Positions 23,298-52,458 of a stretch of 64,000 bases of DNA are shown here, piece by piece. The translations under genes were made by a program, and so were the position numbers. Origin of the DNA: Octopus vulgaris (Eukaryota); contig OX597821.1 in assembly GCA_951406725.2 (NCBI GenBank), forward strand, positions 33,480,001-33,544,000. The letters run 5' to 3'. The notes below the pieces were generated by a model. The model was not told the DNA's origin, did no database searches, and saw nothing but the letters and a program-made list of their open reading frames with translations. The first letter of the stretch is position 1. Every line of letters begins with the position of its first letter.

Positions 23298-24175
23298 CGA
23301 GGTGAGGTGTATGCTGTTGCCGGCGTTGTCCACCCTGGGTCCATCTGCTGTGGCGGTCTTGTGAACTGTGGGCAGTTCCATCTGCGAGCCTGAGCCTGAT
23401 GGAGCCAGGTTAGCTGCTGTACAATCTTTTGTGCCATGCACAAAAAAGATTCCTGCTCAGCAGCTGCCCTTTCAACAACACGTTGGTGGTTTGTGGTACG
23501 CACCACATCTGCGTACCTCCGTTTTGGGGCAGGTGATGCCTGGTCCATCCCATTTCCTTTCGGTGGTTGGTTTCTGTGGCAGGGTCCCGGATGTGCAAAG
23601 CGGCAGCCTGCACCTTCCTCTCCATGCCGGCAGGCACCTTTCAGGTAGAACCTACATACCCGTGTGCGCTGCTTGTTTCCATCCTTTTTGGCATATGGAC
23701 CGTTAGGTTTGCCTCTGTCCCTGGCTGCCTTGTCCCTTGGCTTTGTCTGAGTTTTAGCTTCAGTTTTTCCTCTTTTTTTGGCCTCTTCATCTCCATGTCC
23801 ACGGCTTTTGGAGCCGGTAGGAGCATCCGTACCTGGGTTCACCTCCCGGGCAGGCCTATCGTTGGAGTTTTCTTCCTGGGCGTCCACCAGGTGGGGGTGA
23901 CCCTCCTCATCTGCGCCCACGTCTCCATCCTTGCCATCTTTACTTTGTTCGCGTTTTTCGCTGTTAAAAATGGCATCCAGTGTGTTTATGTGCGATCTGA
24001 CAAGTGCGTATGAGCGTACGAACTCTTGCCTCTTCCGCTCTATTTGTGCTGATGTCCTTTTGAATCCTTTGTTCTTTAGTGCTGCCGCAATTATGTTACT
24101 TGGACTTTCTCCGTCAGCGCATTGCCATCCTCGCAGGAACCACACCAGTTCATCACGTTTCCAAGCTCTGGACAT
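23285..24175 (-). CDS. LINE ORF1: Myb/SANT-like N-terminus + CCCH zinc finger
   Basis: 296-aa open frame; WKRDELVWFL...GFKRTSAQIERK (trihelix-like, inferred); CRFYLKGACRHGEEGAGCRFAH. Confidence 0.75.
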   Translation of the reverse strand: MSRAWKRDELVWFLRGWQCADGESPSNIIAAALKNKGFKRTSAQIERKRQEFVRSYALVRSHINTLDAIFNSEKREQSKDGKDGDVGADEEGHPHLVDAQEENSNDRPAREVNPGTDAPTGSKSRGHGDEEAKKRGKTEAKTQTKPRDKAARDRGKPNGPYAKKDGNKQRTRVCRFYLKGACRHGEEGAGCRFAHPGPCHRNQPPKGNGMDQASPAPKRRYADVVRTTNHQRVVERAAAEQESFLCMAQKIVQQLTWLHQAQARRWNCPQFTRPPQQMDPGWTTPATAYTSPRCSY

Positions 24176-25200
24176 TCTTGATATATTATCTATCTATCTA
24201 ATTATGTTAAGTTATATTAATCCAAAGTAGGGGGGTAATAGAGAAAGAGAGCGTCTATGTACTTAAGGAGAGATTGGGAGCCAAGAGAAGAGAGCAGGAG
24301 AGAAGAGGAAGAGGAGAGATATTTTGTCTATCTATCTATCTATCTAGTTATATTAAGTTATATTAATCCAATAGTGCAATAGGGGGGTAGGGGGTAATAG
24401 AGAAAGAGAGCGTCCGTGCACTTAAGGAGAGATTGGGAGCCAAGAGAAGAGAGCAAGAGAGAAGAGGAAGAGGAGATACTGAGTGCTGAAGGAAGATAGA
24501 GAAAGCCTCTAGAGGAGAGCTGAGATAGACAGAGAAAGCGCAAAGGGAGAGAACCGAAGAGACAGACAGAGAGATCTAAACGAAGCTATTGGGCCAAGGA
24601 GGGGCGCAAGGGAGAGAACTGAAGAGACAGATAGAATTCTAAACGAAGCTATTGGGACATACATATGTATACACACACACACACACATGTACACACGTGT
24701 GCACATGCACATATATAGACAAGAGTAACAAGTGAGTATATAAAGAGACAATAATAATAATGAAACATATATAAGCATATATTACAAAACATATATAAAC
24801 ATATATTACAAAAGTAATAATAGTAAGAGATTATAAGACAATAATAATAATAAAAATGAAAAATAAAATAAAATAAAACAGCTGAAAGAAAAGAAAAGAA
24901 AGAAAGAAAAAACAGGCCAGGAGGTTTTACAGAGTTTATATATATATATGTAGTATATACATACACACATATATATATAACACACACACATATATTTAAC
25001 AAGTGATAATAATAATAGATAATAAAATAGTGTAATAATACATTTGTCCGCCGCAACAGACAAATTCTTCTATAACAAAACTATAACTAATTGCGACTAT
25101 ACCTTTAATAATAATTAAAACAGCTGAAAGAAAACACGCCAAGAAATGGCAATATATATTTATTTCGCTATAGACAATGTCTCTTAAGATAAACTACAAT

Positions 25201-28030: not shown

Positions 28031-28046
28031 TATATATATATATATA

Positions 28047-30690
28047 GCGGTAATGGATCCTTCAACACAGCCCGACCCAAACACTAGAAATAGCAGCTGC
28101 TTCTCCCTTACCTTAACAACATGCTGACCTGTCTTACTCGCTCGGTGACCTCGATCGAAACGGCAGAATCCTGCCCTGCCTGCGTACACGTCACTCCTGC
28201 CCCTTCCGGTCAGCTCCTCAGCTGCTGACGTCATCCCACACGCCACCCTGATCTTGCGCGTCGAGATCTTCTCAAGCTCGGCACCTCGTTCTACCCCTCT
28301 CCACAATCGTCGTTCGACGAAGCGACAATCCTGCGAAGGTCCAAGACGTGTCGCGGCATTCTATCCACGGAGACGTTGTTTCTAGAATTGACCGCTGTCA
28401 CCGTTCCTCTGTTCCATTGAGACATACAGCGCGCCTTTGGTGGCTTAACCCAGACTTCCTCCCCTATTTTCACGTAAGCAGGTTCCTTCTCTTCTTCGTG
28501 GCCCTCCAGCGCTTTACTCGGGTGCCTGCATTCATATTTAAATACAGCTCTCTGCGGCACAGATTCTTCAGCTTGTCCGGATTGGGGAGACAAGTTGTAC
28601 CAACTAACTGCTTCGAGTGGCGAAATGTGCCCTCTTTCCGCTGTGGCCTTGACTGTCCGATGATGCCTCTCTATGATCCCGTTACCGCTGGGCCTATACG
28701 CTGCTCTGAACAAGTGACACACCTTCCACCGGTTAAGCATATCCCTCAATGCGCCGCCCCGTTGTCCATTAGCAGTTCTTCCACGGGACCTCTCTCTAAA
28801 AATATGCCGTTCAAGATCTGCGCAATCTCGTCAGCAATGCCTGTTCTCAACTCCCTCCACATGGCCAGCCGGCCCGGCCCGCAGTTGACCATGGAGAGAT
28901 ACATTCCCTGGTGGTAGTGCGTCACATCCACAGCTAGCCTTTTCCAGTTGTGCTCCACCGAAAGGTTTCCTTGCTCATGCCCACACGGAAAAAGGTCAAT
29001 GGACTGACACCTGTCGCAGCTCCCGACCACTTTCCGGATGCTTCTCCTTGTGATGTCAGCATCAATTTTCTTCGCCAGATACAGGGTCCTGTCCACACCC
29101 AAGTGATGCATACCATGCAGTCTCTTCAGTTCAGAGTCATCCAACTGACACGCCACAGCTATCCCTTTCCGGGCCTCCTCCAGTTTCTCCAACCACACCC
29201 ATTTCACCCTGGTCAGTGCATCCGCCCTGTTTTTCTCCGAAGGCACGAAAACCACATTCAGCTTCAGTCCAAACTCGGCGATCAATTCTCCTAGACGGTG
29301 CTTCACCAACATCTCCGCAGCACCTTTCATCCAAACTCTCCTTACACCGGTGATCACTCCGCCCGCTACCTCCTCCTCCCAAGAGACAAGAACCCCTTCC
29401 TCGATTCACCTCTCCACCTCGTCTTCAAACTCGACCCTGGCGTGGCCTTTCAGGGTATGCTGGTAGCAGCTCACTCTGTTTTTCAGCATCGGGGGCTCGT
29501 CCTTCCATCGCCACTCTATCGTCCACCGCTGACCATCAAATGCCGCCTGAAAATCTTTGTCCTCGATGGTGTAAGTGGCGCAGTCCCTCACGGGGCTCTG
29601 CTCTCTCTGGCGATCCTGACTCACAGTGCACATGCCCCCACGCTTCCGAATGTGACCTCATCTCCCACAATACTGACGCCACCGAGGCAGTTGATGGTGT
29701 CCATCACCACATCAACCCCATCTATCACGCGTTCAGCCACAATTACCTGCAGCCTTAGCGTTGCGCCTCCCACCACTATCTCTACCTTGCTGCTGCTTTT
29801 GCAATGGATTTCGCTGCCGTCGACAGCTCAGACGCTACTTGCCCCATTCCATTTCTTTGTCACTCTTGAAGTCACACGGGTGGTCTTGCAGCCCGTATCC
29901 ACGAGGGCCTTGAACATCTTCCCCTTGGCCTCGACATCAATTAATGGCAGCATCTCCAAAAGCGCCTCTACTCGTTTGCGGGGCAAGTTCGAGAGGCAGC
30001 AACTTCCCTGCGGTCGTTTCCCTGGTCGCAATCACGTGCGATGTGCCCTGTCTGCCTGCATTGATAGCAAACGGGCCCCGGTTGCGTACACTCCCTCACC
30101 ATGTGCAACCCCTGACATCTAAAACACTGACCTGAGAACGGCTGCTGTCGTTGCACGGTAGACTTCTGCACGTCTTTCTCCAGCCGTCAGCTGTCTTTAC
30201 ACAGCTCCGTCACCGCCATCGCTATCGCCTTCCACCCAGAGTGTGGCATCAACACGTGGGCTTGAGTCACAAGTTCGCTCAGTGCCATCTTTTTACTCCC
30301 AGGCAATTGTTGTAGGTGAATCCCTACGTCATCGGGGAACCCATTTACGAATGCCAGTTGCGCTGCTCACTCCAGCCCTTCTCCGTAAACCCAGCCAGCG
30401 TCGCTAACCTTTGAACTTCTGCCACGTAGTCGTCCACCTGTCCTCCCGTCCATTGAATCGTACCCAGCTTAGGAAAAGCTGTATACTCACACTCGGTGTA
30501 AGCATCCCTCAGACGTTGCTCTATCTTTTCCTCGCTCAGACGTTCTTCCTCCTCCATCTCAAGATATAGTGTCAACACGCTCCCTTCCAAATACAGCGCC
30601 ATAAGACTTGCCACATCGCTTATACCTTGCAGTCTTGCCACCAGCCTGATTTTATGAATCCAGGCCACTACATCGCCTTCACCATTAAAG
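28047..30690 (-). mobile_element. Gypsy family G1 remnant: gag-PR-(RT deleted)-RH-IN-PPT-3'LTR
   Basis: Twin CCHC knuckles, ALVDTGC protease, NRADALTR, H-H-C-C and DNG..GNGIIER integrase motifs; PPT AAGATCAGGGTGGCG before LTR start TGTGGGATGACGTCAGC. Confidence 0.9.
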
Positions 30691-32233
30691 GGGAAGGGAG
30701 TGAGGTAGCAGAGAGAAGAAAGAGGAAAGAAGAAGAGAAGAGGAGGGAAGAGAGTAGGAGTGAAAAGATGAAGGACTGAAGAGAAGTAGGAGTTGGGGTG
30801 GGTTAGATGAAAAGGGGGGAAGAGTTGAGACCAAATGGCGTAAAAGAGCGAAGAGAGAAGATTAATCCCTGTTTAAGGCGCAAAACGGGAATCCGGATGG
30901 CCTCTGTGCAGGGACAATCCGAACACAGACAGGTGTTGCAAGGAGTGACCGGTGGAGCAGAAATGGCATGAGACCGGTGTGTCATTGGCAAGGCGAATGT
31001 CACGTAGGTGTTCGCGAACCGGTCAGCCAAGCGATGTACAGGGAATGGCAGAGAGAGCTGGAGGTGCAGGTGAAGGAGTTGATGATGCGATAGGGTCGAT
31101 GATGGGTGCCAGTGAGGAGGGTGGTGTTGGAGAGGTAAGGGCAAGTGCGGCAAGGTGGGCGGGAGCAGGGGAACAAGCCAGGTTGGGAGGTAGGGTCAGG
31201 GAAGAAGCTGTGGACCAAGAGGTCTCGTAGGTTATGGGCTCATTTGAAGGAGGGGAGGAGTCAGTTAGGGAAGATGTGTGATGTGGACGGGTCGGACTGG
31301 AGATGCCGGAAAGCTCTAAGAATGGTGCATTGGAGAGGTAGGGTCGTGGGGTGGTAAGTGAGGGGAAAAGGGAGGCGGGAGACTACAGGGCAGGTTCGGG
31401 GGAAGAGAGTAGATGCACGGTCTACGGAACGTGCTCTGGCAAGGGCGGTGTGGTTAGTGGTGAGGGGGTATCCACGTAGGATGAAGTGCGAGCCATGAGT
31501 TGAGACTGAGTCTCAAAGTCATGGTCGTCACTACAGAGTGTACGTAGACAGAGGAATAGGGGATGGAAAGCTTGGTGTGTTTGGGGTGGGAGGAAGAGAA
31601 GTTTAGGTATGAGTGTGAGTCTATGTGTTTGTAGTGAATGGAGGTGGTAAGAGTGGAGTGATGAATGCTGACCGAAATGTCGAGGAAGGAGACAGAGGTG
31701 TTGGAGATGGTGGAGGTGAAGTGGAGGGCAGGATGGAAGGATTGAACGAAAGAGAGGAAGGAATCTAGATGTTCACGGGAGAGTGAGGTGGCACCGATAA
31801 TGTCATCAATGTAACGACCGTATTGTTCGGGAGTGGGACCAGTGAAATTAGAGAATATTTGGGGCTCAACATAGCCAACAAACAGGTTCGCATAGTTGGG
31901 GCCCATTCGCGTTCCCATGGCCACTCCCGAGACCTGTTGGTAGAACTCGCCCGCGAATGAGAAGCAGTTGAGTGAAAGGACAAGTTCGGCCAGACGAATG
32001 AGTGTGGAGGTGTCGGGTTCGGGATTGAGGCAGAGGTCGAGAAAGTGTTGAAGGGCCCGCAGTCCTTTGTGGTGAGGGATGACGGTATAGAGGCTCTGGA
32101 TGTCCATAGTAAAAAGTATTTTGGAGGATCCGGGAGGAAAGGAGAAAGAGTTGAAAAGTCGGAGAGCATGGTTGGTGTCGTGGATGTGGGAGGGAAGAGA
32201 CGCCACTAGGGGGCAAGGACACGGTCGAGGTAT
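30691..32233 (-). mobile_element. Neptune-like Penelope element (RT + Cys motif + GIY-YIG remnant), cassette copy 1
   Basis: TMDIQSLYT, GVAMGTRMGPNYANLF, RYIDD; PCSRPPCRTC linker. Confidence 0.9.
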
Positions 32234-32681
32234 GTTTAACCTTGGTCAATTGTCATTGCTTCAGCTCAACATTTTGGGGCTGAAAGATGTAGTCGGTGGG
32301 CCAAATCCAAAAAGGGCCTTATTTATTGAGTTGGTTGCACCCACTTCCCTGCAACTTTAGTTTGATGGTACCACATTGTTCCTGGGTCTACGGGGATGAC
32401 ATTTTCACTTGTCATTAGGGCAACAGCTTTTTTATAAGTAAAGGTGAGTCTTGAGGCGATTAAAAGTGGAAATTTGTGATACACAGGTAACCATTGGAAA
32501 TATTTGTCTATTAACGCCCTAGATGTCACTGAAATGAAGGAAATATACCTCTTTACCATACCCATGGTGAATTTTTTTCATTTTCCATTGCCCAAAATTA
32601 GAAAATCTCGACAATTTGTCTGAAAAAACGCCCATTTTTTAATGTTTTTTCACAGTATATTGACTTTCATTCCCATTTTGT

Positions 32682-33092
32682 TTACCATTCCCCTCCTCTC
32701 CTCATCTCTGAATAAAAAATCGACGCTATTATCCACTCTGGTTCTATCGATGGTGGGATTCTTCCCACCCTAATTCTGGCAATTCGTTTGTCCAAACTGT
32801 TTGGCATCAAAATCCATTTCTCTCCCTGTATCAGCCTGTTGGAGGTATTTTCCGCCTCCTCTTCTGATACAAGGGTTACCACCATCGACACATATCTCTT
32901 CCCTCTCGTAAAGAACGTTATGCTGTTTCCTATCAGTTCTTCCAAAATTTCTTCTATTTCTTCCTGCGGTGTGTATTCAGTTTGTCTATTTTTATTTGAA
33001 AATGATCTGAAAATGACGGTCTTCTTTTCCATTTTAACTTTTTCCTCCTGTGGCAGAGTCATTTTTATATTTGACCCATCCTTTTCTACCAT
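32682..33092 (-). mobile_element. L1/Tx1-like ORF1 fragment, cassette copy 1
   Basis: RRM-like pattern (FFTRGKRY..VVTL..EEEAE; RIRVGRIPP.IEPEWI); near-identical copies at 35026, 37509, 40056. Family assignment is inferred. Confidence 0.5.
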
Positions 33093-33587
33093 ACTGTAAT
33101 ATTTCTGTATCAGAAAAGGAGCAACTGGTACAGAAGGAGATCTGTAAATTGATTTTTGTTGACGGGATGGTCACCCTGACAGTGGGGTACTCTAGCCACT
33201 GACATTGAAATGTCTATCCGTGGGGGCGATCTCCTAATTGGCAACAGTCATCACCCCACCTCCACACCCCAGTGCAGCAGGCCTGTCTGTTCTAGTGATC
33301 TTCGACTGCAGTAATCGTCGTCTGTCGAAGCGACAATCCTGCCAAGGTCCAAGACTTGTCGTGGCATTCCATCCATGGAGACGTTGTTTCTGGAATTGAC
33401 CGCCGTCACCGTTCCTCTGCTCCATTGAGACGTACAGCGCGCCTTTGGTGGCTTAACCCAGACTTCCTCCCCTATTTTCACACAGACGGGCCCCTTCTCT
33501 TTCTCGTGACCCGGCGCTTTGCTCGGGTGCCTCCATTCATATTTGAATACAGCTCTCTGTGGCACAGATTCCTCAGCTTGTCCAGAT
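33093..33587 (-). mobile_element. Helentron endonuclease fragment fused to Gypsy integrase C-terminal fragment
   Basis: RTDR...GGGVMTV (APE-like) to ~33312; EEVWVKPPKARC..NSRNNVS (G1 integrase tail) 33313-33587. Confidence 0.75.
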
Positions 33588-34576
33588 CGGTCTCGTAGGT
33601 TATGGGCTCGTTTGAAAGAGGGGAGGGCTCGGTTAGGGAAGAGGTGTGATGTGGACGGGTTGGACTGGAGATGCCGGAAAGCTCTAAGAATGGTGCGTTG
33701 GAGAGGTAGGGTGGTGGGGTGGAAAGTGAGGGGAGACTACAGGGCATGTTCGGGGGGAGAGAGTAGATGCACGGTCTACGGAACGTGCTCTGGCAAGGGC
33801 GGTGTGGATAGTGGTGAGGGGGTATCCACGTAGGATGAAGTGGCAAGCCACGAGTTGAGACTGAGTCTCAAAGTCATGGTCGTCACTACAGAGCCTACTT
33901 AGACGGAGGGATAGGGGATGGAAAGTTTGGGGTGGGAGGAAGAGAAGTTTAGGTATGAGTGTGAGTCTGTGTGTTTGTAGTGAATGGAGGTGGTAAGAGT
34001 GGAGTGATGAATGCTGACCGAAATGTCAAGGAAGGAGACAGAGGTGTAGGAGATAGTGGAGGGCAGGATGGAAGGATTGAACGAAAGAGAGGAAGGAATC
34101 TAGATGTTCACGGGAGAGTGAGGTGGCACCGATAATGTCATCAATGTAACGACCGTATTGTTCGGGAGTGGGACCAGTGAAATTAGAGAATATTTGGGGC
34201 TCAACATAGCCAACAAACAGGTTCGCATAGTTGGGGCCCATTCGCGTTCCCATGGCCACTCCCGCGAACGAGAAGCTGTTGGTAGAACTCACCCGCGAAT
34301 GAGAAGCAGTTGAGAGAAAGGACAAGTTCGGCCAGACGAATGAGTGTGGAGGTGTCGGGTTCGGGGTTGAGGCAGAGGTCGAGAAAGTGTTGAAGGGCCC
34401 GCAGTCCTTCGTGGTGAGGGATGACGGTATAGAGGCTCTGGATGTCCATAGTAAAAAGTATTTTGGAGGAGCCGGGAGGAAAGGAGAAAGAGTTGAAAAG
34501 CCGGAGAGCATGGTTGGTGTCGTGGATGTGGGAGGGAAGAGACGCCACTAGGGGGGCAAGGACACGGTCGAGGTAT
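33588..34576 (-). mobile_element. Penelope-like RT fragment, cassette copy 2
   Basis: Near-identical to 31220-32233. Confidence 0.9.
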
Positions 34577-35025
34577 GTTTAACCTTGGTCAATTGTCATT
34601 GCTTCAGCTCAACATTTTGGGGCTGAAAGATGTAGTCGGTGGGCCAAATCCAAAAAGGGCCTTATTTATTGAGTTGGTTGCACCCACTTCCCTGCAACTT
34701 TAGTTTGATGGTTCCACATTGTTCCTGGGTCTACGGGGATGACATTTTCACTTGTCATTAGGGCAACAGCTTCTTTTATAAGTAAAGGTGAGTCTTGAGG
34801 CGATTAAAAGTGGAAATTTGTGATACACAGGTAACTATTGGAAATATTTGTCTATTAACGCCCTTGATGTCACTGAAATGAAGGAAATATACCTCTTTAC
34901 CATACCCATGGTGAATTTTTTTCATTTTCCATTGCCCAAAATTAGAAAATCTCGCCAATTTGTCTGAAAAAACGCCCATTTTTTAATGTTTTTTCACAGT
35001 ATATTGACTTTCATTCCCATTTTGT

Positions 35026-36350
35026 TTACCATTCCCCTCCTCTCCTCTTCTCTGAATAAAAAATCGACGCTATTATCCACTCTGGTTCTATCGATGATAG
35101 GATTCTTCCCACCCTAATTCTGGCAATTCGTTTGTCCAAACTGTTTGGCATCAAAATCCATTTCTCTCCCTGTATCAGCCTGTTGGAGGTATTTTCCGCC
35201 TCCTCTTCTGATACAAGGGTTACCACCATCGACGCATATCTCTTCCCTCTCGTAAAGAACGTTATGCTGTTTCCTATCAGTTCTTCCAAAATTTCTTCTA
35301 TTTCTTTCTGCAGTGTGTATTCAGTTTGTCTATTTTTATTTGAAAATGATCTGAAAATGACGGTCTTCTTTTCCATTTTAACTTTTACCTCCTGTGGCAG
35401 AGTCATTTTTATATTTGACCCATCCTTTTCTACCATACTGTAATATTTCTGTATCAGAAAAGGAGCAACTGGTACAGAAGGAGATCTGTAAATTGATTTT
35501 TGTTGACGGGATGGTCACCCTGACAGTGGGGTACTCTAAGCCACTGACATTGAAATGTCTATCCGTGGGGGCGATCTCCTGCTTGGCAACAGTCATCACC
35601 CCACCTCCACACCCCAGTGCAGCAGGCCTGTCTGTTCTAGTGATCTTCGACTGCACAGTAAGATGGATGCTACTTGTTGATTCTGCTTCAAGAACGCTTC
35701 CACGAAACAAAAAACATATCAATATTTTGAAGAGTGTTATCTGCTTTCAAGTCTTGTTCATGTTGAAAGTAGGACCTGATTTTGAGCAGTCTAATCTGCA
35801 GTCCTCCATGAATAACTGTGGGAGCAGCAGAAGGCAAAGTTTCAGACAGCGTTTGCCGTCGAAGCCTCTCCATTTCACGAACAACAGATGGACTAGTGCG
35901 GATTGCAGTGGCATCAGATCCAAGCAAGAAGAGGCCACTGAAGTGTTGGACACAACTGAAGGCAACATATGCCTGGCCATGCATGAAGGAACTTTTTCCT
36001 TGCATGGCAACAACAATCTTATCCATGGTCTTGCCCTGGACTTTATATATGGTACAACCCCAGTCCAGTGAGAGAGGAAATTACGAACGCTTTGCTTCCA
36101 CAGATTGTCTACCCCTCCTGGTATAGAGCTGAACATCCATTCATTTGATGGGAACTACTCCCGGGAATGACCTCTTGTACTGGCTGTCAGCGATGGCCTG
36201 CTTACCTACCCATTCACTGTCAAATTTGATGAGGATTGTATGGATGTCACTACCAGTGTTGTCGATCGGGACAACTGTACCACAGACGCCATTTGCCAAA
36301 CTGTCAGAGACGTCTATGTTGACAGTTATCATCACTCTAGTGCTAACTGC
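35026..36350 (-). mobile_element. ORF1 fragment + Helentron PIF1-helicase/endonuclease fragment, cassette copy 2
   Basis: NIDVSDSLANG..GTV and HGQAYVAFS helicase motifs followed by the IRSY..H..DL..D APE start. Confidence 0.8.
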
Positions 36351-37872
36351 TAAAGTCATGGCCGTCACTACAGAGCCTACGTAGACGGAGGAATTGGGAA
36401 TAGGGGATGGAAAGCTTGGTGTGTTTGGGGTGGGAGGAAGAGAAGTTTAGGTATGAGTGTGAGTCTGTGTTTGTAGTGAATGGAGGTGGTAAGAGTGGAG
36501 TGATGAATGCTGACCGAAATGTCGAGGAAGGAGACAGAGGTGTTGGAGATAGTGCAGGTGAAATGGAGGGAAGGATTGAACGAAAGAGAGGAAGGAATCT
36601 AGATGTTCACGGGAGAGTGAGGTGGCACCGATAATGTCGTCAATGTAACGACCGTATAGTTCGGGAGTGGGACCAGTGAAACTAGAGAATATTTGGGCCT
36701 CAACATAGCCAATGAACAGGTTGGCATAGTTGGGGCCCATTCGTGTTCCCATGGCCACTCCCGTGAACATGTTGGTAGAACTCGCCCGCGAACGAGAAGC
36801 AGTTGAGAGAAAGGACAAGTTCGGCCAGACGAATGAGTGTGGAGGTGTCGGGTTCGGGGTTGAGGCAGAGGTCGAGAAAGTGTTGAAGGGCCCGCAGTCC
36901 TTCATGGTGAGGGATGACGGTATAGAGGCTCTGGATGTCCATAGTAAAAAGTATTTTGGAGGAAAGGAGAAAGAGTTGAAAAGCCGGAGAGCATGGTTGG
37001 TGTCGTGGATGTGGGAGGGAAGAGACGCCACTAGGGGGGCAAGGACACGGTCGAGGTATGTTTAACCTTGGTCAATTGTCATTGCTTCAGCTCAACATTT
37101 TGTGGCTGAAAGATGTAGTCGGTAGGCCAAATCCAAAAAGGGCCTTATTTATTGAGTTGGTTGCACCCACTTCCCTGCAACTTTAGTTTGATGGTACCAC
37201 ATTGTTCCTGGGTCTACGGGGATGACATTTTCACTTGTCATTAGGGCAACAGCTTTTTTTATAAGTAAAGGTGAGTCTTGAGGCGATTAAAAGTGGAAAT
37301 TTGTGATACACAGGTAACCATTGGAAATATTTGTCTATTAACGCCCTTGATGTCACTGAAATGAAGGAAATATACCTCTTTACCATACCCATGGTGAATT
37401 TTTTTCATTTTCCATTGCCCAAAATTAGAAAATCTCGCCAATTTGTCTGAAAAAACGCCCATTTTTTAATGTTTTTTCACAGTATATTGACTTTCATTCC
37501 CATTTTGTTTACCATTCCCCTCCTCTCCTCATCTCTGAATAAAAAATCGACGCTATTATCCACTCTGGTTCTATCGATGGTGGGATTCTTCCCACCTTAA
37601 TTCTGGCAATTCATTTGTCCAAACTGTTTGGCATCAAAATCCATTTCTCTCCCTGTATCAGCCTGTTGGAGGTATTTTCCGCCTCCTCTTCTGATACAAG
37701 GGTTACCACCATCGACGCATATCTCTTCCCTCTCGTAAAGAACGTTATGCTGTTCCCTATCTGTTCTTCCAAAATTTCTTCTATTTCTTCCTGCGGTGTG
37801 TATTCAGTTTGTCTATTTTTATTTGAAAATGATCTGAAAATGACGGTCTTCTTTTCCATTTTAACTTTTTCT
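36351..37872 (-). mobile_element. Penelope RT + linker + ORF1 fragment, cassette copy 3
   Basis: Same order and junctions as copies 1, 2 and 4. Confidence 0.85.
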
Positions 37873-37957
37873 TCGTCTAAAGTCCCCAGACAGCAAGACA
37901 ATGGCACCCCACCCCCATCTATTTGTGGCTTCCCTCTATGTCTCGTAAAGTTCTGTC

Positions 37958-38615
37958 TATAGTGTGTGTGAGATTCGAATATAAAGGTACTTACCTTCTC
38001 TTCGCTCTGATGGAGACCCTTCAGTGGTAATGTATCCTTTGACACAGCCCCGACCCAAACACTAAAGATAGCAGCTGCTTCACCCAACCTTAGCAACGTC
38101 TTCACACGTCGACAACCCTCGTTCGAAACGCCGAGGTCAGCGCTCGCTGCGCGCTTAACGGCTGCCCCTTCCAGTTGACCCCAGTTCCGGTCCCCAGCTG
38201 CTGATGTCATCCCATACGCCACCCTGATCTTAAAGATCACAATCTCTCTACTCCATGTCGTAGTCCACCGTCCAACCGGGAGGGCGCCTTGAGCGTCGAG
38301 ATTTTCTCAAGCTGGACACTTCGTTCTCCCCCTCTCCATAATCGTCGTCCGTCGAAGCGACAGTCCTGCCAAGGTCCAAGACGTGTCGTGGCATTCCATC
38401 CATGGAGACGTTGTTTCTGGAATTGACCGCCGTCACCATTCCTCTGCTCCATTGAGACGTACAGCGCGCCTTTGGTGGCTTAACCCAGACTTCCTCCCCT
38501 ATTTTCACGCAGATGGGCCTCTTCTCTTTATGGTGACCCTCCGGCGCTTTGCTCGGGTGCCTCCATTCATATTTGAATACAGCTCTCTGTGGCACAGATT
38601 CCTCAGCTTGTCCAG
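37958..38615 (-). mobile_element. Gypsy G1 3' LTR, PPT and integrase tail
   Basis: LTR homologous to 44254-44471; PPT ATCAGGGTGGCG; VWVKPPKARC. Confidence 0.85.
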
Positions 38616-40466
38616 ATCGGTCTCGTAGGTTATGGGCTCGTTTGAAGGTGGGGAGGGCTCGGTTAGGGAAGAGGTGTGATGTGGACGGGTCGGACTGGAG
38701 ATGCCGGAAAGCTCTAAGAATGGTGCATTGGAGAGGTAGGGTCGTGGGGTGGTAAGTGAGGGGAAAAGGGAGGCGGGAGACTACAGGGCATGTTCGGGGG
38801 GAGAGAGTAGATGCACGGTCTACGGAACGTGCTCTGGCAAGGGCGGTGTGGATAGTGGTGAGGGGTATCCACGTAGGATGAAGTGGCAAGCCACGAGTTG
38901 AGACTGAGTCTCAAAGTCATGGTTGTCACTACAGAGCCTACGTAGACGGAGGAATCGGGGATGGAAAGCTTGGTGTGTTTGGGGTGGGAGGAAGAGAAGT
39001 TTAGGTATGAGTGTGAGTCTGTGTGTTTGTAGTGAATGGAGGTGGTAAGAGTGGAGTGATGAATGCTGACCGAAATGTCGAGGAAGGAGACAGAGGTGGA
39101 GGGCAGGATGGAAGGATTGAACGAAAGAGAGGAAGGAATCTAGATGTTCACGGGAGAGTGAGGTGGCACCGATAATGTCATCAATGTAACGACCGTATTG
39201 TTCGGGAGTGGGACCAGTGAAATTAGAGAATATTTGGGGCTCAACATAGCCAACAAACAGGTTCGCATAGTTGGGGCCCATTCGCGTTCCCATGGCCACT
39301 CCCGAACATGTTGGTAGAACTCGCCCGCGAATGAGAAGCAGTTGAGAGAAAGGACAAGTTCGGCCAGACGAATGAGTGTGGAGGTGTCGGGTTCGGGATT
39401 GAGGCAGAGGTCGAGAAAGTGTTGAAGGGCCCGCAGTCCTTTGTGGTGAGGGATGACGGTATAGAGGCTCTGGATGTCCATAGTAAAAAGTATTTTGGAG
39501 GAGCCGGGAGGAAAGGAGAAAGAGTTGAAAAGTCGGAGAGCATGGTTGGTGTCGTGGATGTGGGAGGGAAGAGACGCCACTAGGGGGCAAGGACACGGTC
39601 GAGGTATGTTTAACCTTGGTCAATTGTCATTGCTTCAGCTCAACATTTTGTGGCTGAAAGATGTAGTCGGTGGGCCAAATCCAAAAAGGGCCTTATTTAT
39701 TGAGTTGGTTGCACCCACTTCCCTGCAACTTTAGTTTGATGGTACCACATTGTTCCTGGGTCTACGGGGATGACATTTTCACTTGTCATTAGGGCAACAG
39801 CTTTTTTATAAGTAAAGGTGAGTCTTGAGGCGATTAAAAGTGGAAATTTGTGATACACAGGTAACCATTGGAAATATTTGTCTATTAACGCCCTAGATGT
39901 CACTGAAATGAAGGAAATATACCTCTTTACCATACCCATGGTGAATTTTTTTCATTTTCCATTGCCCAAAATTAGAAAATCTCGCCAATTTGTCTGAAAA
40001 AACGCCCATTTTTTAATGTTTTTTCACAGTATATTGATTTTCATTCCCATTTTGTTTACCATTCCCCTCCTCTCCTCATCTCTGAATAAAAAATCGACGC
40101 TATTATCCACTCTGGTTCTATCGATGGTGGGATTCTTCCCACCCTAATTCTGGCAATTCGTTTGTCCAAACTGTTTGGCATCAAAATCCATTTCTCTCCC
40201 TGTATCAGCCTGTTGGAGGTATTTTCCGCCTCCTCTTCTGATACAAGGGTTACCACTATCGACGCATATCTCTTCCCTCTCGTAAAGAACGTTATGCTGT
40301 TTCCTATCTGTTCTTCCAAAATTTCTTCTATTTCTTCCTGCGGTGTGTATTCAGTTTGTCTATTTTTATTTGAAAATGATCTGAAAATGACGGTCTTCTT
40401 TTCCATTTTAACTTTTTCCTCCTCTGTCAGAGTCATTTTTATATTTGACCCATCCTTTTCTACCAT
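38616..40466 (-). mobile_element. Penelope RT + linker + ORF1 fragment, cassette copy 4
   Basis: Near-identical to copies 1-3. Confidence 0.88.
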
Positions 40467-41900
40467 ACTGTAATATTTCTGTATCAGAAAAGGAGCAACT
40501 GGTACAGAAGAAGATCTGTAAATTGATTTTTGTTGACGGGATGGTCACCCTGACAGTGGGGTACTCTAAGCCACTGACATTGAAATGTCTATCCGTGGGG
40601 GCGATCTCCTTCTTGGCAACAGTCATACCCCACCTCACCCCAGTGCAGCAGGCCTGTCTGTTCTACTGATCTTCGACTGCAGTAAGATGGATGCTACTTG
40701 TTGATTCTGCTTCAAGAACGCTTCCACGAAACAAAAACTACATCAACATTTTGAAGAGTGTTATCTGCTTTCAAGTCTTGTTCATGTTGAAAGTAGGACC
40801 TGGTTTTGAGTAGTCTGATCTGCAGTCCTCCATGAATAACTGTGGGAGAAGCAGAAGGCAAAGTTTCAGACGACGTTTGCCGTCGAAGCCTGTCCATTTA
40901 ATGAACAACAGATGGTCTAGTGCGGATTGCAGTGGCATCAGATCCAAGCAAGAAGAGGCCACTGAAGTGTTGGACACAACTGAAGGCAACATATGCCTGG
41001 CCAAGCATGAAGGAACTTTTTCCTTGCATGGCAACGACAATCTTATCCATGGTCTTGCCCTGGACTTTATATATGGTGCAACCCCAGGCCAGTGAGAGAG
41101 GAAGTTACGAATGCTTTGCTTCCACAGATCGTCTACCCCTCCTGGTATAGAGCTGAACATTCAGTCATTTGATGGGAACTACTCCCATGAATGACCTCTT
41201 GTACTGGCTGTCAGCGATGACCTGCTAACAACCCATTCACTGTCAAATTTGATGAGGGTTGTATGGATGCCACTACCAGTGTTGTCGATCCTGACAACTG
41301 TACCACAGACGCCATTTGCCAAACTGTCAGAGACGTCTATGTTGACAGTTATCATCATTCTAGTGCTAACTGCTACAGACAGTACTTCCCTGAGGTCGCC
41401 AGTATCTGATGCCTTCGTGTAAATGGCAACATCAGTAAGGCCAGTCTGGACGGCTTTCTTTTTGTCGATAGCTTTGATGTCATAAATCAGGTGAAACAGC
41501 TTGAGGTGTTCTGTGTTGTGTTCATCAACCTCTTTGTTCGTCTTAAACACGTGAAAGGCGTTCACTTGGTAGTCAGTGTCTTCTTTGGTGATGACTCTGG
41601 TCTTAAGCAAGGTTATACCATCTTCCATGCAGGCAGCTGTCCTGACCCTCGTCAATAATTGGGCCAAACGTTGATCTTCCTTTTGTCGCATGCTCTCTGT
41701 GAGTTCCATCACTTTGAAGTTTTCCTCCTACAGAGATCCATGGAAGCAGGTGTAGTTGTCTCTCAGGAAGCCGAAGACGTGATTCTGGCCTACAGGTTGC
41801 AGTTGATAGAGATCCCCAACGGCCATCACACTGACTCCTCCAAATCGTGAATCTGGGTCAGAGTTCCTGCAGCTGTCTTGAATAATGGCAGAAATGCTCT
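40467..41900 (-). mobile_element. Helentron PIF1 helicase + AP endonuclease remnant
   Basis: [57 protein letters not shown] motifs, then APE motifs. Confidence 0.88.
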
Positions 41901-43672: not shown

Positions 43673-43734
43673 ATTTAATAATAATATTTTTTTAGCAAAG
43701 TAAATAATTTTTTAAACTTAAATAATAATTTTTT

Positions 43735-44471
43735 CAACACGCGGGCCTGAGTCACATGTTCGCTCAGCGCCATCTTTTTAATCCCGGGCAATCGTTGTCG
43801 GTGAATCCCTACATAGTTGGGGAACCCATTTACAAATGCCAGCCGCGCTGCTCTCTCCAGCCCTTCTCCCGTAAACCCAGCCAGCGTCACTCACCTTCTA
43901 ACTTCTGCCGCGTACTCGTCCACCTGTCCTCCTGTACATCTGATCACACCCAGCTTAGCAAAAGCTGTGTATTCACATTCTGTGTAGGCATCCCGCAAAC
44001 GTAGCTCTATCTTTTCCTCGCTCAGGCGTTCCTCCTCCTCAATTCTCAAGGTATAGCGTTAACGCGCTCCCTTCTAAATACAGCGCCATAAGACTTGCCA
44101 CATCGCTTATACCTTGCAGTCTTGCCACCAACCTGACTTTATGAATCCAGGCCACTACATCGCCTTCACCATTAAAGGGTCTGATGATGTCGCTGGCGAT
44201 CCTAATTTTCGCAGACATTGTGGTGACGACTTATGTGGAGTGCCGAAATAGCTTGTAGTGTGTGCGAGATTCGAATATAAAGGCACCTACCTTCTCTTTG
44301 CTCTGATGGAGACCCTTCAGTGGTAACGGATCCTTCGACACAGCCCCGACCCGAATGCTAAAGATAGCAGCTGCTTCACCCAACCTTAGCAACGTCGACG
44401 GCCCTTGTTCGTAAGGCCGATATCGCCGCTCGCTGCGCGCACCTCACGGCTGCTGCTGACGTCATCCCACA
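43735..44471 (-). mobile_element. Gypsy G1 5' LTR (44254-44471), PBS and gag fragment
   Basis: TG...CA LTR; FNGEGDVVAWIHKVRLVARLQG gag start. Confidence 0.88.
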
Positions 44472-46824: not shown

Positions 46825-48777
46825 CGGAAGGTTTACGAAAATAAACAAAAGACAAAGGCAGGTGGACTACAAACAAATAATGTATTAGTATGCCGCTCAG
46901 GAATAGAAATAAAACAAGTCTTTTATGTTTCGAGCCTACGCTCTTCGACAGAAAGATACACAGAAAAGAAACAAGGAGAGAAAAAAAATTGCGTGTAGGG
47001 GCTAACGATCCAACATGGCGTTCTGATTTCAGAAGTCAGAGATCGGAGGTCAGACGTTATATGCTAGAGGGATAGTAGGGGAGATAACAGGGTCAAGTGA
47101 CCTCGCTCCAACCTGAAGGTGCATGTGTGCATAAGAGAGTATGTATGTGCATGTGGAAGAGGGCTGGTGGTTTGGACATGTGTATGATGTGATGTGTAAT
47201 GTCGTATGGTGTAGTGTAGTGTGGTGTGGGGAGGAGGGGAGTGAGGGAGCAGAGAGAAAGAAAGAGGGAGGAAGGGGGAGAAGAAGGGAGGAGGGAAAGA
47301 GAGTAGGGTGAAAAGATGAAGGACTGAAGAGAAGTAGGAGTCTGGGTGGGTTAGATGTAAAGGGGGGGAGGGATGAAAATGGCGTAAAAGAGCGAAGAGA
47401 GAAGATTAATCCCTGTTCACGGCGCAAACGGGAATCCGAATGGCCTCTGCAAGGACAATCCGAACACAGACAGGTGTTCCAAGGAGTGACTGGTGGAGCA
47501 GAAATGGCATGAGACGGAGGTATTCCGCGAACTGGTCAGCCAAGCGGTGTCCCGTTTGTCCGATGTACAGAGAATGGCAGAGAGAGCAGGAGATGCAATA
47601 GATGATATTGCTGGAGGTGCAGGTGAAGGAGTCGAGGGTGCGATAGGGTCGGTGATGGGTGCCAGTGAGGAGGGTGGCGTTGGAGAGGTAAGGGCAAGTG
47701 CGGCAACGTGGGCGGGAGCAGGGGAACAAGCCAGGTTGGGAGGTAGGGTCAGGGAAGAAGCTGTGGACCAAGAGGTCTCGTAGGTTATGGGTTCATTTGA
47801 AAGAGGGGAGGGGTCGGTTAGGGAAGAGGTGTAAAGTGGACGGGTCAGACTGGAGATGCCGGAAAGCTCTAAGAATGATGCGTTGGAGAGGTAAGGTCGT
47901 GGGGTGGTAAGTGAGGGGAAAAGGGAGGCAGGAGACTACAGGGCGGGTTCGGGGGGAGAGAGCAGATGCACGGTCTACGGAACGTGCTCTGGCAAGGGCA
48001 GTGTGGATAGTGGTGAGGGGATATCCACGTAGGGTGAAGTGGCGAGCCATGAGTTGAGACTGAGTCTCAAAGTCATGGTCATCACTACAGAACCGACGTA
48101 GACGGAGGAATAGGGGATGGAAAGCTTAGTGTGTTTGGGGTGGGAGGAAGAGAAGTTTAGGTATGAGTGTGAGTCTGTGTGTTTGTAGTGAATGGAGGTG
48201 GTAAGAGTGGAGGATGAATGCTGACCGAAATGTCGAGGAAGGAGACAGAGGTGTAGGAGATAGTGGAGGGCAGGATGGAAGGATTGAACGAAAGAGAGGA
48301 AGGAATCTAGATGTTCACGGGAGAGTGAGGTGGCACCGATAATGTCGTCAATGTAACGACCGTATAGTTCGGGAGTGGGACCAGTGAAACTAGAGAATAT
48401 TTGGGCCTCAACATAGCCAACAAACAGGTTCGCATAGTTGGGGCCCATTCGTGTTCCCATGGCCACTCCCGTGAACATGTTGGTAGAACTCGCCTGCGAA
48501 CGAGAAGCAGTTCAGAGAAAGGACAAGTTTGTCCAGACGAATGAGTGTGGAGGTGTCGGGTTCAGGGTTGACGCAGAGGTCGAGAAAGTGTTGAAGGGCC
48601 TGCAGTCCTTCGTGGTGAGGCATGACGGTATAGAGGCTCTGGATGTCCATTGTAAAAAGTATTTTGGAGGAGCCGGGAGGAAAGGAGAAAGAGTTGAAAA
48701 GCCGGAGAGCATGGTTGGTGTCGTGGATGTGGGAGGGAAGAGACGCCACTAGGGGGGCAAAGACACGGTCAAGGTAT
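46823..48777 (-). mobile_element. Neptune-like Penelope element with 3' terminus, cassette copy 5
   Basis: RT motifs; CSRPRCRTC; SNIIYCISCSLCHSLYIGQTGHRLADQFAE GIY-YIG; terminus abuts (TA)n. Confidence 0.9.
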
Positions 48778-49096
48778 GTTTAACCCTGGTCAATTGTCAT
48801 TGCTTCAGCTCAACATTTTGTGGCTGAAAGATGTAGTCGGTGGGCCAAATCCAAAAAGGGCCTTATTTATTGAGTTGGTTGCACCCCCTTCCCTGCAACT
48901 TTAGTTTGATGGTACCACATTGTTCCTGGGTCTACGGGGATGACATTTTCACTTGTCATTAGGGCGGAGGTCGAGAAAGTGTTGAAGTGCCCACAGTCCT
49001 TTGTGGTGAGGGATGACGGTATAGAGAATCTGGATGTCCATAGTAAAAAGTATTTTGGAGGAGCCGGGAGGAAAGGAGAAAGAGTTGAAAAGATGG

Positions 49097-49950
49097 TTGC
49101 AGGGTCGTGGGTCCAGAATGGTGGAATTTTCAAGGAAATCGGCGCTTGGAATGCCATGTCAATCGGAGGTATTAAGTTGGCCGCTGGATTGTATTTGTTG
49201 GAGTTCTTAAATGTTTTATTGTAGGGTGATGTGCAAGCTGTAATTCTTCAACGCGGTTGATGAAGCTGGTTCCGGGGAAGGCCGCAATTCGTTTGACGGG
49301 GTCACTAAATGTAGAGGATATGTGTGTATGTAAACAAATACATAAACCGTTTCATGATTAAAAAGAATTTATTTACAGGGTTATAAGTACACTACATACA
49401 AATGTAAGCAAATGCTACGAATTGCTTGTATAGAGCACATATTAAAAATGAATATGTTTGTGTGTGTGTGTGTGTTTCATTCGAAACAGTAGTCGATAGA
49501 CACTGTGAGCATTTCTCTCTGTCTGTCGTCTGCCAAAAACTTGGGGCGAGATAGATCTGTCTGCTGCCGTCTCTCCGCTGCAATTGTCCTTTTCTCTGTT
49601 TTCCCCCTTGTATTTATAATATTTGATTTCTTTGGGTTTGTATGTGGGTGATGCAGTCATGTGTTGATGTATGCATTTCATTTAGGAAGATGGATAAGTT
49701 AAGAGTTTGGAACTTAGGCAAAAAAAACTTGCACAAACCTTGCTGGCCATCGAACTGTTCTTCCCGATTTGGTGTGTCGGGGTTGTGCAGAATGTGTGGT
49801 GTTTGCTGGAGTTGTTGAGTCTGTTCGAGGAAAGGAGGGAACTGAATGTAAGTCAGGAGGGCAGACGCTGGAGAAAAAGCTGCTTGAAAATTTTTTCCGG
49901 GAGGCTCTCATCTCCAAGAAGGTGGGACGGCGTTTTGTCACCCAACTCTT
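49097..49950 (-). mobile_element. Rearranged CsRN1-like Gypsy LTR/PBS/gag fragments
   Basis: ISLKIPPFWTHDPA gag start; PBS TAGTGACCCCG; duplicate of 53405-54495. Confidence 0.8.
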
Positions 49951-52458
49951 CTAGCATCACACCAGACGGTCCCGCATTTCGTCTTGGGCATGTACCAGTT
50001 CCCCCTGACCGGGTCTTCCGCTCTTGTCCTCTCTAGGATCTCCTGCATCATCGCCACCGTCCCTTCTCCCACCTTTTTCGCCCCACCTCTCTCCTTCTGC
50101 TCGTCTCTTGGTGTAACTACACGCCATGCGCAGCCATCCAGCGATCGGGTAGTGACTGACCAACTTCCCACACACCGAGAACAGCTCTCTCCTGCTGACG
50201 CTGGAACTCAGCTCTGGGATTTCATTTCCTCTCCGGAACACCAATTCACCTGATCTATCTCTTCGCAGCTTCAGCCCCAGCGCAGCTCCCCTTCAATCGA
50301 CTCCGGTGGCTTAGCAATCAGTCCGAACTTCTCCAGATGTCTCACTACCTCGTCGGCTGGCACTACAGTTTCGTCCACCAAAATGTCATCAATGTAGGAG
50401 CTGGTGGCCTTTCTAATCTTGCCGTCTTTCCCTAGGACGGACCTAAGCACTTCCGCCATGATCTTCGGAGCGGAATTCAGCCCGAAACCCAGCCTGGTTA
50501 GACAGTACGTCCGGCCCTTGTACCGCACCAGCTGATATCGCCATAGTTTGTCGCTCACATGGAGCTGCAAGTATGCCGATCTCAAGTCGACAATCGTCGC
50601 TGCCTCAGTCGACTGTCTCCACTTACGTAATGCCTCACCACAAACGTCTGTCGCCTCACCTCCCGTGTGACACGATATGTGCTGGTTTAGCTCCCTGAAG
50701 TCCAGCACCGGTCTGACTTTTCCCTTCGTAGGCTGCACCACCGCCATCAAGGGTAGCACTCCGCCCGCTACCTCCTCCTTCCAAGGGACAAGGACCCCTT
50801 CCTCGATCCACCTCTCCACCTCGTCTTCAAACTCAACCCTGGCGTGGCCTTTCAGGGTATGCTGGTAACTGCTCACCCTGTTCTCCAGTGTCGAGGGCTC
50901 GTCCTTCCATTTCCACTCTATCATCCACCGCTGACCATCGAATGCCGCCTGAAAGTCTTTGTCCTCGATGGTGTAAGCGGTGCAGTCCCTCGCGGGGCTC
51001 TGCTCCCTCTGGCGATCCTGACTCGCAGTGCACGACGCCCCACGCTTCCGAACGTGACCTCATTTCCCACAACACTGACGCCACCGAGGCAGTTGATGGC
51101 GTCCATCCCCATCACCACATCAACTCCATTTATCACGCGTTCGGCCACAATTGCCTGTAGCCTTAGCATCGCGCCGCGCACCACTATCTCTACCTTGCTG
51201 CTGCCTCTGCAACGGATTTCGCTGCCGTCGACCGCCCAGACACTACACACCCCGTTCAATTCCTTCGTCACCCTCAAAGTCACCAGGTTGGTCGTACAGC
51301 CTGTATCCACAAGGGCCTTGAACGTCTCCCCCTCGGCCTCCACGTCAATCAATGGCAGCGTCTCCAATAGCGCCTCTGCTCCTTTGAGGGGAAAGTTCGA
51401 GAGGCAGCAACTTCCCCGCGGTCGTTTCCCTGGCCGCAATCACGGGCAATGTGCCCTGTCTGCCTGCATCGATAGCAAACGGGCCCCGGCTGCGTACAGT
51501 CCCGCACCATGTGCGGTCCCTGGCATCTAAAACACTGTCCTGAGAACGGCTGCTCTCGTTGCACAGTGGGCTTCTGTACCTCTTTCTCGGGACGTCGTCC
51601 GTCTTTACGCGCCTCCGTCACCGCCATCGCTATCGCCTTCCGCCCAGAGTGTCTCGTCAACCCGCGAGCATGAGTTACAAGTTCGCTCAATGGCATCTTT
51701 TTGACCCCGGGCAGTCGTTGTAGGTGAATCCCTACATCATCAGGGAACCCATTCACGAACGCCAGTCGGGCTGCTCTCTCCAGTCCTTCTCTGGCAAACC
51801 CGGCCAGAGTCGCTAGCCTTCTAGCTTCCGATGCAAAATCATTCACCTGGCCTCCCGTCCACCTGATTGCACCTAGCGAAAGCTGTGTACTCGCATTCCG
51901 TGTATGCGTCACACAAGCGCCGCTCTATATTCTCATCGCAGAGCCGTTCTTCTTCATCCATCTCTAGGTAAAGCGACAACGCACTCCCTTCCAAATACAG
52001 CGCCATAAGACTCGCCACGTCACTTATGCCCTGCAGTCTCGCCACCAGCCTGATTTTCTGAATCCAGGCCACTACATCGCCTTCGCCGTTAAAGTCTGAC
52101 GACGTCACTGGCGATCCTAATTTTTGCAGACATCGTGTTGAAAAAAAATGTGAATGTTTACGAACTGCCGAAATAGCTTGTAGTGAGTGTATGCGATTTG
52201 AATATAGAGGCACCTACCTTCTCTTCGTGGTGACGGAGATCCTCCAGAGATGGCTGGTCCTTCCTCACAGCCCTACCCGAACACTAACAATAGCAGCTGC
52301 TAGCCCCAAACCCTTTAGCGACTTCCTCGCACGTCTTGTCGCCAGCACGACCCACGTTGGAAAGGTCAACTTCCACCCCCTGCGCACGCTTGACGGCTGA
52401 CCCCTTCCGCTTGCCCCAGCTTCTGGTCAACGCACCCCGCTGCTGACGTCATCCCACA
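49951..52458 (-). mobile_element. Gypsy G1 5' part: LTR (52179-52458), PBS, gag, protease, RT
   Basis: Twin CCHC, ALVDTGC, VRPVLDFRELN, DLRSAYLQL, RLGFGLNSAP, YIDD; frameshifted between domains. Confidence 0.92.

Follow-up and report, generated by a model that had tools for sequence, protein, structure and literature searches.

A site complementary to the 5' end of tRNA-Phe adjoins the LTR in a divergent lineage of LTR retrotransposons from Octopus vulgaris and other animals

Here, we describe a candidate primer-binding site of 12 nt that directly adjoins the 5' LTR in a divergent group of LTR retrotransposons and is complementary to the first 12 nucleotides of the host tRNA-Phe. It was found in a window of 64,000 nucleotides of the Octopus vulgaris genome (assembly GCA_951406725.2, contig OX597821.1, positions 33,480,001 to 33,544,000), which is the whole stretch of DNA that was analysed and to which the coordinates below refer. 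The position, sequence, conservation and boundaries of the site are read directly from the DNA; the feature is real, defines the lineage and is apparently undescribed. Comparison of the sequences suggests that the primer is probably a 5' piece of tRNA-Phe.

The window contains two copies of the element that carry the site, both truncated and both on the minus strand. Read on that strand, the LTR end of either copy is followed by AGCTATTTCGGC with a spacer of 0 nt. In copy A, the 5' LTR (44254..44471, TG...CA), which at 218 bp falls short of the ~275 bp seen in complete relatives, adjoins the site at 44242..44253, and gag starts 24 nt beyond it; only the 5' part of gag is present (43734..44218, ATG at 44218-44216), as the element ends abruptly at 43734. 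Copy B has a 5' LTR of 280 bp (52179..52458), the same 12-mer at 52167..52178 and, 34 nt further on, gag and pol (49941..52133, gag ATG at 52133-52131) with a zinc-knuckle region, protease, RT and DUF7047, and it is broken and cut off where RNase H begins. Alignment of a complete relative and its proteins to the window showed that gag and pol of both copies run from the LTR towards lower coordinates. The initial annotation had reported an identical 12-mer next to the 5' LTR end in two otherwise diverged copies, and this is exact at both places, the copies being 78% identical over 662 aligned nt. Three further pieces lie on the same strand, namely a 5'-truncated third copy with gag-pol-integrase remnants (28253..30692) that has neither a 5' LTR nor a primer site, a 3' LTR of the same group (37960..38216) and a truncated 3' LTR (28046..28240). 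Both 3' LTRs are preceded by a polypurine tract and neither is followed by the 12-mer; since it is lacking behind the LTR at 37960..38216, the 12-mer is not part of the LTR. Besides the two exact copies, no match to the 12-mer with fewer than two mismatches was found in the window.

The site is highly conserved within the host genome. The LTR end together with the site has 279 exact genome matches, compared with 3 for a reversed control. In the first 100 of these 279 junctions, the LTRs fall into at least 21 clusters and the leaders are unrelated, yet the 12-mer is constant; gag lies directly downstream in 92 of them, and the 8 junctions without a gag match are LTR-leader remnants or rearranged. 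No insertion with a retained primer was found among these 100. Complete copies are ~4.2 kb long with ~275-bp TG...CA LTRs, a polypurine tract, 5-bp target duplications and unrelated flanks, and the position of the LTR end is set by the 3' LTR ends and the target duplications. LTR pairs are up to 100% identical, so that the site marks a large, young lineage. Among the 30 closest DNA look-alikes, including the window's own copy, 22 sites are exact and 8 differ by one transition. As the query used for this comparison itself contained the site, an unbiased sample was drawn by DUF7047 instead, its selection being independent of the site (38 of the 150 matches listed, about every fourth one). The junction is present in 31 of these 38 copies, with 24 exact sites, 6 with one mismatch and 1 with two, while 6 of the remaining 7 lack the gag start and 1 is deleted across the junction. 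At one locus (L306, ~601-660), 7 nt separate the LTR end and primer site from a second, inverted copy of that LTR end, which is perhaps a fold-back product of reverse transcription.

The match to tRNA-Phe was examined against the genes of the host itself. A tRNA-start pattern has 94 matches in the 2.8-Gb genome and 0 for the control. ARAGORN identified tRNA-Phe(GAA) genes in 10 of 10 loci taken from these matches, and all begin with a 12-mer complementary to the site, so that the 12/12 complement claimed earlier for metazoan tRNA-Phe holds for nt 1-12 of the host tRNA. Of the host tRNA types, 11 were sampled, and in this incomplete set the sole perfect match of the site is at position 1 of tRNA-Phe, while neither tRNA 3' ends nor internal stretches match it. 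The annotation was also right that there is no TGG-type site, since the 12-mer pairs with the start of the tRNA and not with its CCA-3' end, and no better match to another RNA 3' end appeared among the 11 types. The extent of conservation ends at tRNA nt 1. While base -1 is A in every host tRNA-Phe gene listed, the base after the site is A in 50, G in 19, T in 17 and C in 14 of the first 100 of the 279 junctions. As this base is free and independent of base -1 in the tRNA genes, the pairing partner ends at tRNA nt 1. Pairing with the leader of a pre-tRNA was rejected because T stands next to the site in so few of these copies, and the 13-letter string quoted in the initial annotation (44241-44253) is correct in its 12-mer, but its 13th base does not belong to the site. 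The 12-bp duplex has an energy of -18.7 kcal/mol, compared with -23.6 kcal/mol for the folded tRNA, with which it would have to compete; this counts against the reading of the site as a primer-binding site for this tRNA. About 45 of the tRNA-Phe-start matches lie at almost exact 200-bp spacing in G000:C18:30147732-30157146, likely a tandem array of tRNA genes. In two element junctions, the site deviates by one base and in this form exactly complements a minor variant of the host tRNA-Phe gene (loci L139, L140/L241 and L143, L145), which could reflect copying of the primer or a plain transition.

Relatives of the element occur in several groups of animals. Among 7992 scored candidates, 921 pol homologues were found at E<=1e-20; the named ones come from molluscs and crustaceans, the closest named one among the homologues listed being from Argonauta, and a further one comes from a sea spider. 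By profile search, 78 loci were obtained, 75 from metagenomes and 3 from genome bins, with pol identities of 33-57%. The gag start is visible in 37 of these 78 foreign loci, 2 of which lie at a contig edge, and in all 35 others AGCTAT stands directly behind the apparent LTR end, which in most of the foreign loci was judged from terminal CA-like bases. Apart from the last three LTR bases, the flanks on either side of the site are unconserved. The second half of the site varies, reading TTCGGC in 11 of 29 distinct foreign junctions, CGCGGC in 9, CACGGC in 3, CCCGGC in 2, CCGGGC in 2, and CACGCG and TTCGTC in 1 each. In the common variants, the changes are confined to two bases, which face tRNA positions 6 and 5; three distinct junctions vary at other positions. 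Variability across the family had been named at the outset as an observation that would speak against the primer reading; the site proved constant across the host LTR clusters, and it varies in the foreign loci mainly opposite those two positions. Only 3 site variants with C opposite tRNA position 6 were found in the octopus genome. Since the common variants would mispair with tRNA-Phe of this host, other tRNA-Phe starts are predicted in their own hosts, and it is a prediction from the sequences that the site tracks the tRNA-Phe of each host.

One element with the CC variant is present in jellyfish-associated runs, where the contigs switch to flanking DNA at the LTR end and no other letter occurs inside the site among the best-supported rows (4 runs, 3 studies); one loose end in these runs is a decayed copy. 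Members of the lineage therefore come from molluscs and crustaceans, from a sea spider and from a jellyfish sample. In an integrase tree of 41 rows, which left out 6 foreign loci with a short or no integrase match and all loci without a visible site, the 7 site states change 10 times, compared with a minimum of 6 and a shuffled mean of 19.5. The site states are clustered on this tree yet switch repeatedly. Two unrelated families share the CC variant, one of them being sister to the TT elements of this genome (95/87), and the contig names of one series hint at a possible common host for the two. At four loci (L106:1958-1969, L107:71-82, L121:690-701 and L136:372-383), AGCTAT is kept and the distal half of the site is altered. 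The form found in L121 and L136 is one mismatch away from the start of this host's tRNA-Lys(TTT), so the primer may not always be tRNA-Phe, and a switch to the 5' end of another tRNA is possible there. No tRNA was found by ARAGORN in the 48 foreign loci scanned, out of 78, and no relative was found in viral contigs. Group elements also occur in contigs of bacterial genome bins (L136-L138), and these three prokaryote matches are probably eukaryotic contamination.

The element is an LTR retrotransposon by its direct TG...CA LTRs, target duplication, polypurine tract, gag with two CCHC knuckles and pol with an integrase. The order of pol is PR-RT-DUF7047-RH-IN, with a RVT_3/RNase_H-type domain, in which the acidic residues of RNase H are discernible in the translation, and a DDE integrase (rve); the PR-RT-RH-IN order is common to Ty3/Gypsy, BEL/Pao, Troyka and retroviruses. 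The name 'Gypsy' given in the initial annotation could not be upheld. At E<=0.001, neither of the 2 pol proteins matches PF17917 or PF17919, nor does any of the 120 homologues listed, and the RT is 21-27% identical to host Gypsy RTs. In an RT tree with few, host-only references and a LINE root that is a long branch, 23 group RTs fall outside the clade of 12 host PF17917-type RTs (99/99), a clade joining 2 BEL RTs (94/96), and this position makes the label doubtful. Canonical Ty3/Gypsy elements (Metaviridae) of the same genome share the TG...CA LTRs, polypurine tract, CCHC gag and PR-RT-RH-IN order with this group. However, they score >100 bits on PF17917, where this group has no match and carries DUF7047 with the RVT_3/RNase_H-type domain, and TGG sites were found in 14 of 16 ordinary Gypsy stretches taken as a control, one of the other two having no LTR pair and one a decayed pair. 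In six host Gypsy RTs (L197, L199, L202, L203, L206 and L208), SQDD or IADD stands in place of YxDD.

Other assignments were considered and rejected. BEL/Pao does not fit, as there is no PF05380 (Peptidase_A17) match and the RT stands apart from the 2 host BEL RTs. The RT and RNase H of this group presumably share a motif likeness with DIRS elements. A DIRS-like origin was rejected on the rve DDE integrase and the direct LTRs; the recombinase matches examined had no RT motif, and the RT tree included no DIRS RT. One such match, a 583-aa tyrosine recombinase frame with no adjoining RT (L259:2553-4304, minus strand), we take to belong probably to a Crypton-type DNA transposon. Troyka/Kuafuorterviruses are likewise a divergent marine-animal LTR lineage long placed under Gypsy, but excerpts of PMC12440569 and PMC11673190 give 3-bp duplications, CG...CG ends and (I/V/L)ADD, whereas the present elements have duplications of 5 bp, ends of the form TG...CA and, in most cases, YIDD. 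The group is a divergent LTR lineage of open rank, and may be among the clades of PMC6238403 that are unnamed or called MolGy. The ESM Atlas gave only unnamed RT clusters, and the PDB weak matches with retroviral integrases first.

To prime minus-strand synthesis, a primer must end at the LTR end, which would place the 3'-OH on nt 12 of the tRNA, or, should the invariant AG be a spacer that pairs by accident, on nt 10-11. With the 3'-OH at the LTR edge and conservation ending at nt 1, the primer would most likely be the first 12 nucleotides of the tRNA. The idea of the initial annotation, priming by a 5' tRNA piece cut near nt 10-12, came through the refutation tests that were run as a plausible reading of the sequence; an end at nt 10 did not, because pairing reaches nt 12, barring the case that an invariant spacer is formed by the two bases nearest the LTR. 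We propose that Gag, which has two CCHC knuckles, would unfold tRNA-Phe at the acceptor and D stems and anneal nt 1-12 to the site. The RNase H of the element would then cut the tRNA after nt 12 in trans, in a Tf1-like manner, and leave the 3'-OH at the LTR edge. Finally, plus-strand synthesis would reach the 5' end of the primer and copy it, which would account for the sharp boundary at tRNA nt 1 and for the repeated resetting of the site to the host tRNA. In Tf1, the primer is 11 nt long. A cut by RNase H is favoured for two reasons: Tf1 obtains its primer likewise, as a 5' RNA piece released by an RT RNase H cut (excerpts of PMC4600332, including the Levin 1996 title), and very distant hosts share one and the same end point. 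Copying of the primer cannot be general, since a passage of PMC7472051 and a reference title in PMC5371799 state that Ty1 and Ty3 do not inherit the primer sequence. We lean, with modest confidence, towards the joint reading that a 12-nt 5' piece of tRNA-Phe primes minus-strand synthesis and that the element's own RNase H makes the cut. It is a more tentative suggestion that the group is an animal-wide LTR lineage, possibly of superfamily rank (with its DUF7047 pol), defined by a fourth mode of priming in which the 5' end of tRNA-Phe is captured, the element's RNase H makes a cut after nt 12 and the site is rewritten from the host tRNA in every round. A conserved helper or second tRNA contact was not found (of 13 LTRs, 2 scored above all 60 shuffles and 11 failed to), and 7 folds gave no common RNA fold around the site.

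The main rival to a cut by the element's RNase H is a primer made by the host. A 5' tRNA-Phe fragment (a 5' tRF, a 5' half or a miscut of RNase P) would anneal by nt 1-12, and its unpaired 3' tail would be trimmed to the duplex. This fits the whole sequence evidence equally well, a free fragment needs no unfolding of the tRNA, and Ty5 primes from the 3' end of a host RNase P-mediated internal cleavage, as described in part of PMC5371799. However, the same fragment or the same trimming would be required in cephalopod, cnidarian and other hosts, and the end lies precisely at nt 12 in every one of the 35 foreign loci, from which we infer that the ruler belongs to the element. We regard a host-made primer as rather unlikely. 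It is a distinctly improbable alternative that the site serves to bind the 5' end of the tRNA in packaging, folding or dimerisation, or that its partner is some other small RNA, while the true 3'-OH comes from elsewhere; the RNA screen covers 11 host tRNA types only, which leaves room for such a partner, but synthesis has to begin at the LTR edge, which is precisely where the pairing stops, and the junction has no second candidate site. Self-priming as in Tf1/sushi, with a coincidental tRNA match, is very improbable and was rejected on the LTR sequences. The zero spacer and short site resemble Tf1-type elements (excerpts of PMC4600332), but the longest pairing run in 13 LTRs is 7-9 nt and is equalled by 22-98 of 100 shuffles, in agreement with the earlier claim of no complement inside the LTR, and the site is constant across LTRs of so many clusters. 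That the 12-mer is chance or the remnant of a tRNA gene used as insertion target is scarcely credible: the plus strand does look like a tRNA gene start followed by TG, but both readings are refuted by the internal position of the 12-mer between LTR and gag, the unrelated flanks and 5-bp duplications of complete copies, the 3' LTRs without it, the lack of any tRNA gene found in the window, and the junction counts against the reversed control.

The proposed priming by the tRNA 5' end has likenesses to two known systems. Tf1/sushi elements (S. pombe Tf1 and S. japonicus Tj1; parts of PMC4600332 and PMC6317226) also have a short LTR-adjoining site that pairs with an RNA 5' end needing a cut for its 3'-OH, but there it is the 5' end of the element's own transcript, whereas here it is that of a host tRNA and the LTR holds no complement. 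Half-tRNA priming (copia, Ty5, Osser, Bianca and fungal Helenus/Copia; sections of PMC6317226, PMC10886601 and PMC5371799) likewise uses a 3'-truncated tRNA without TGG/CCA pairing. In those Copia-type elements, the site pairs with the anticodon stem-loop, in contrast to nt 1-12 (the 5' strand of the acceptor stem into the D stem) in the present elements of PR-RT-RH-IN order, for which the best match among the 11 host tRNA types is at position 1 of tRNA-Phe. Ajax is primed by tRNA-Leu's 3' end, according to a passage of PMC10886601.

No account of a site that matches the 5' end of a tRNA came up in the literature searched, in line with the remark in the initial annotation that the mode was not recognised as described; subscription papers, Repbase Reports, GyDB and unseen supplements were outside the scope of this search, and the 12-mer is absent from the papers checked for it. 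An earlier description is unlikely, though quite conceivable. By term search, the accessible text of the Troyka paper (PMC12440569) mentions neither PBS nor tRNA, and that of the chaetognath 'deep-branching' paper (PMC2678813) has nothing on primers. The available parts of surveys of molluscs, crustaceans and annelids (PMC6238403, PMC3587641 and PMC8220671) give no such site, with 0 occurrences of PBS or tRNA in PMC6238403. At least one recent metazoan survey considers tRNA 3' ends only, as far as the excerpt of PMC13524379 goes, so that a site of this kind would be missed by it. A survey of plant elements distinguishes three types of LTR primer, whole tRNA, half tRNA and self primer (part of PMC6317226). 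If our reading is true, a tRNA 5' dodecamer would be a fourth type, one that might form a bridge from tRNA priming to Tf1-type cleavage priming, and 5' tRNA fragments would gain a concrete, testable role.

The window also contains other repeats. Units of ~2.3-2.5 kb with RT remnants, apparently LINE-like, are tandemly amplified at 30692-41381 and 47233-48965 and are interleaved with duplicated integrase pieces of the LTR element described here. A LINE-type element lies at 20336-24193 on the minus strand; it comprises an ORF with a CCCH zinc finger, an endonuclease and an RT frame of 801 aa.
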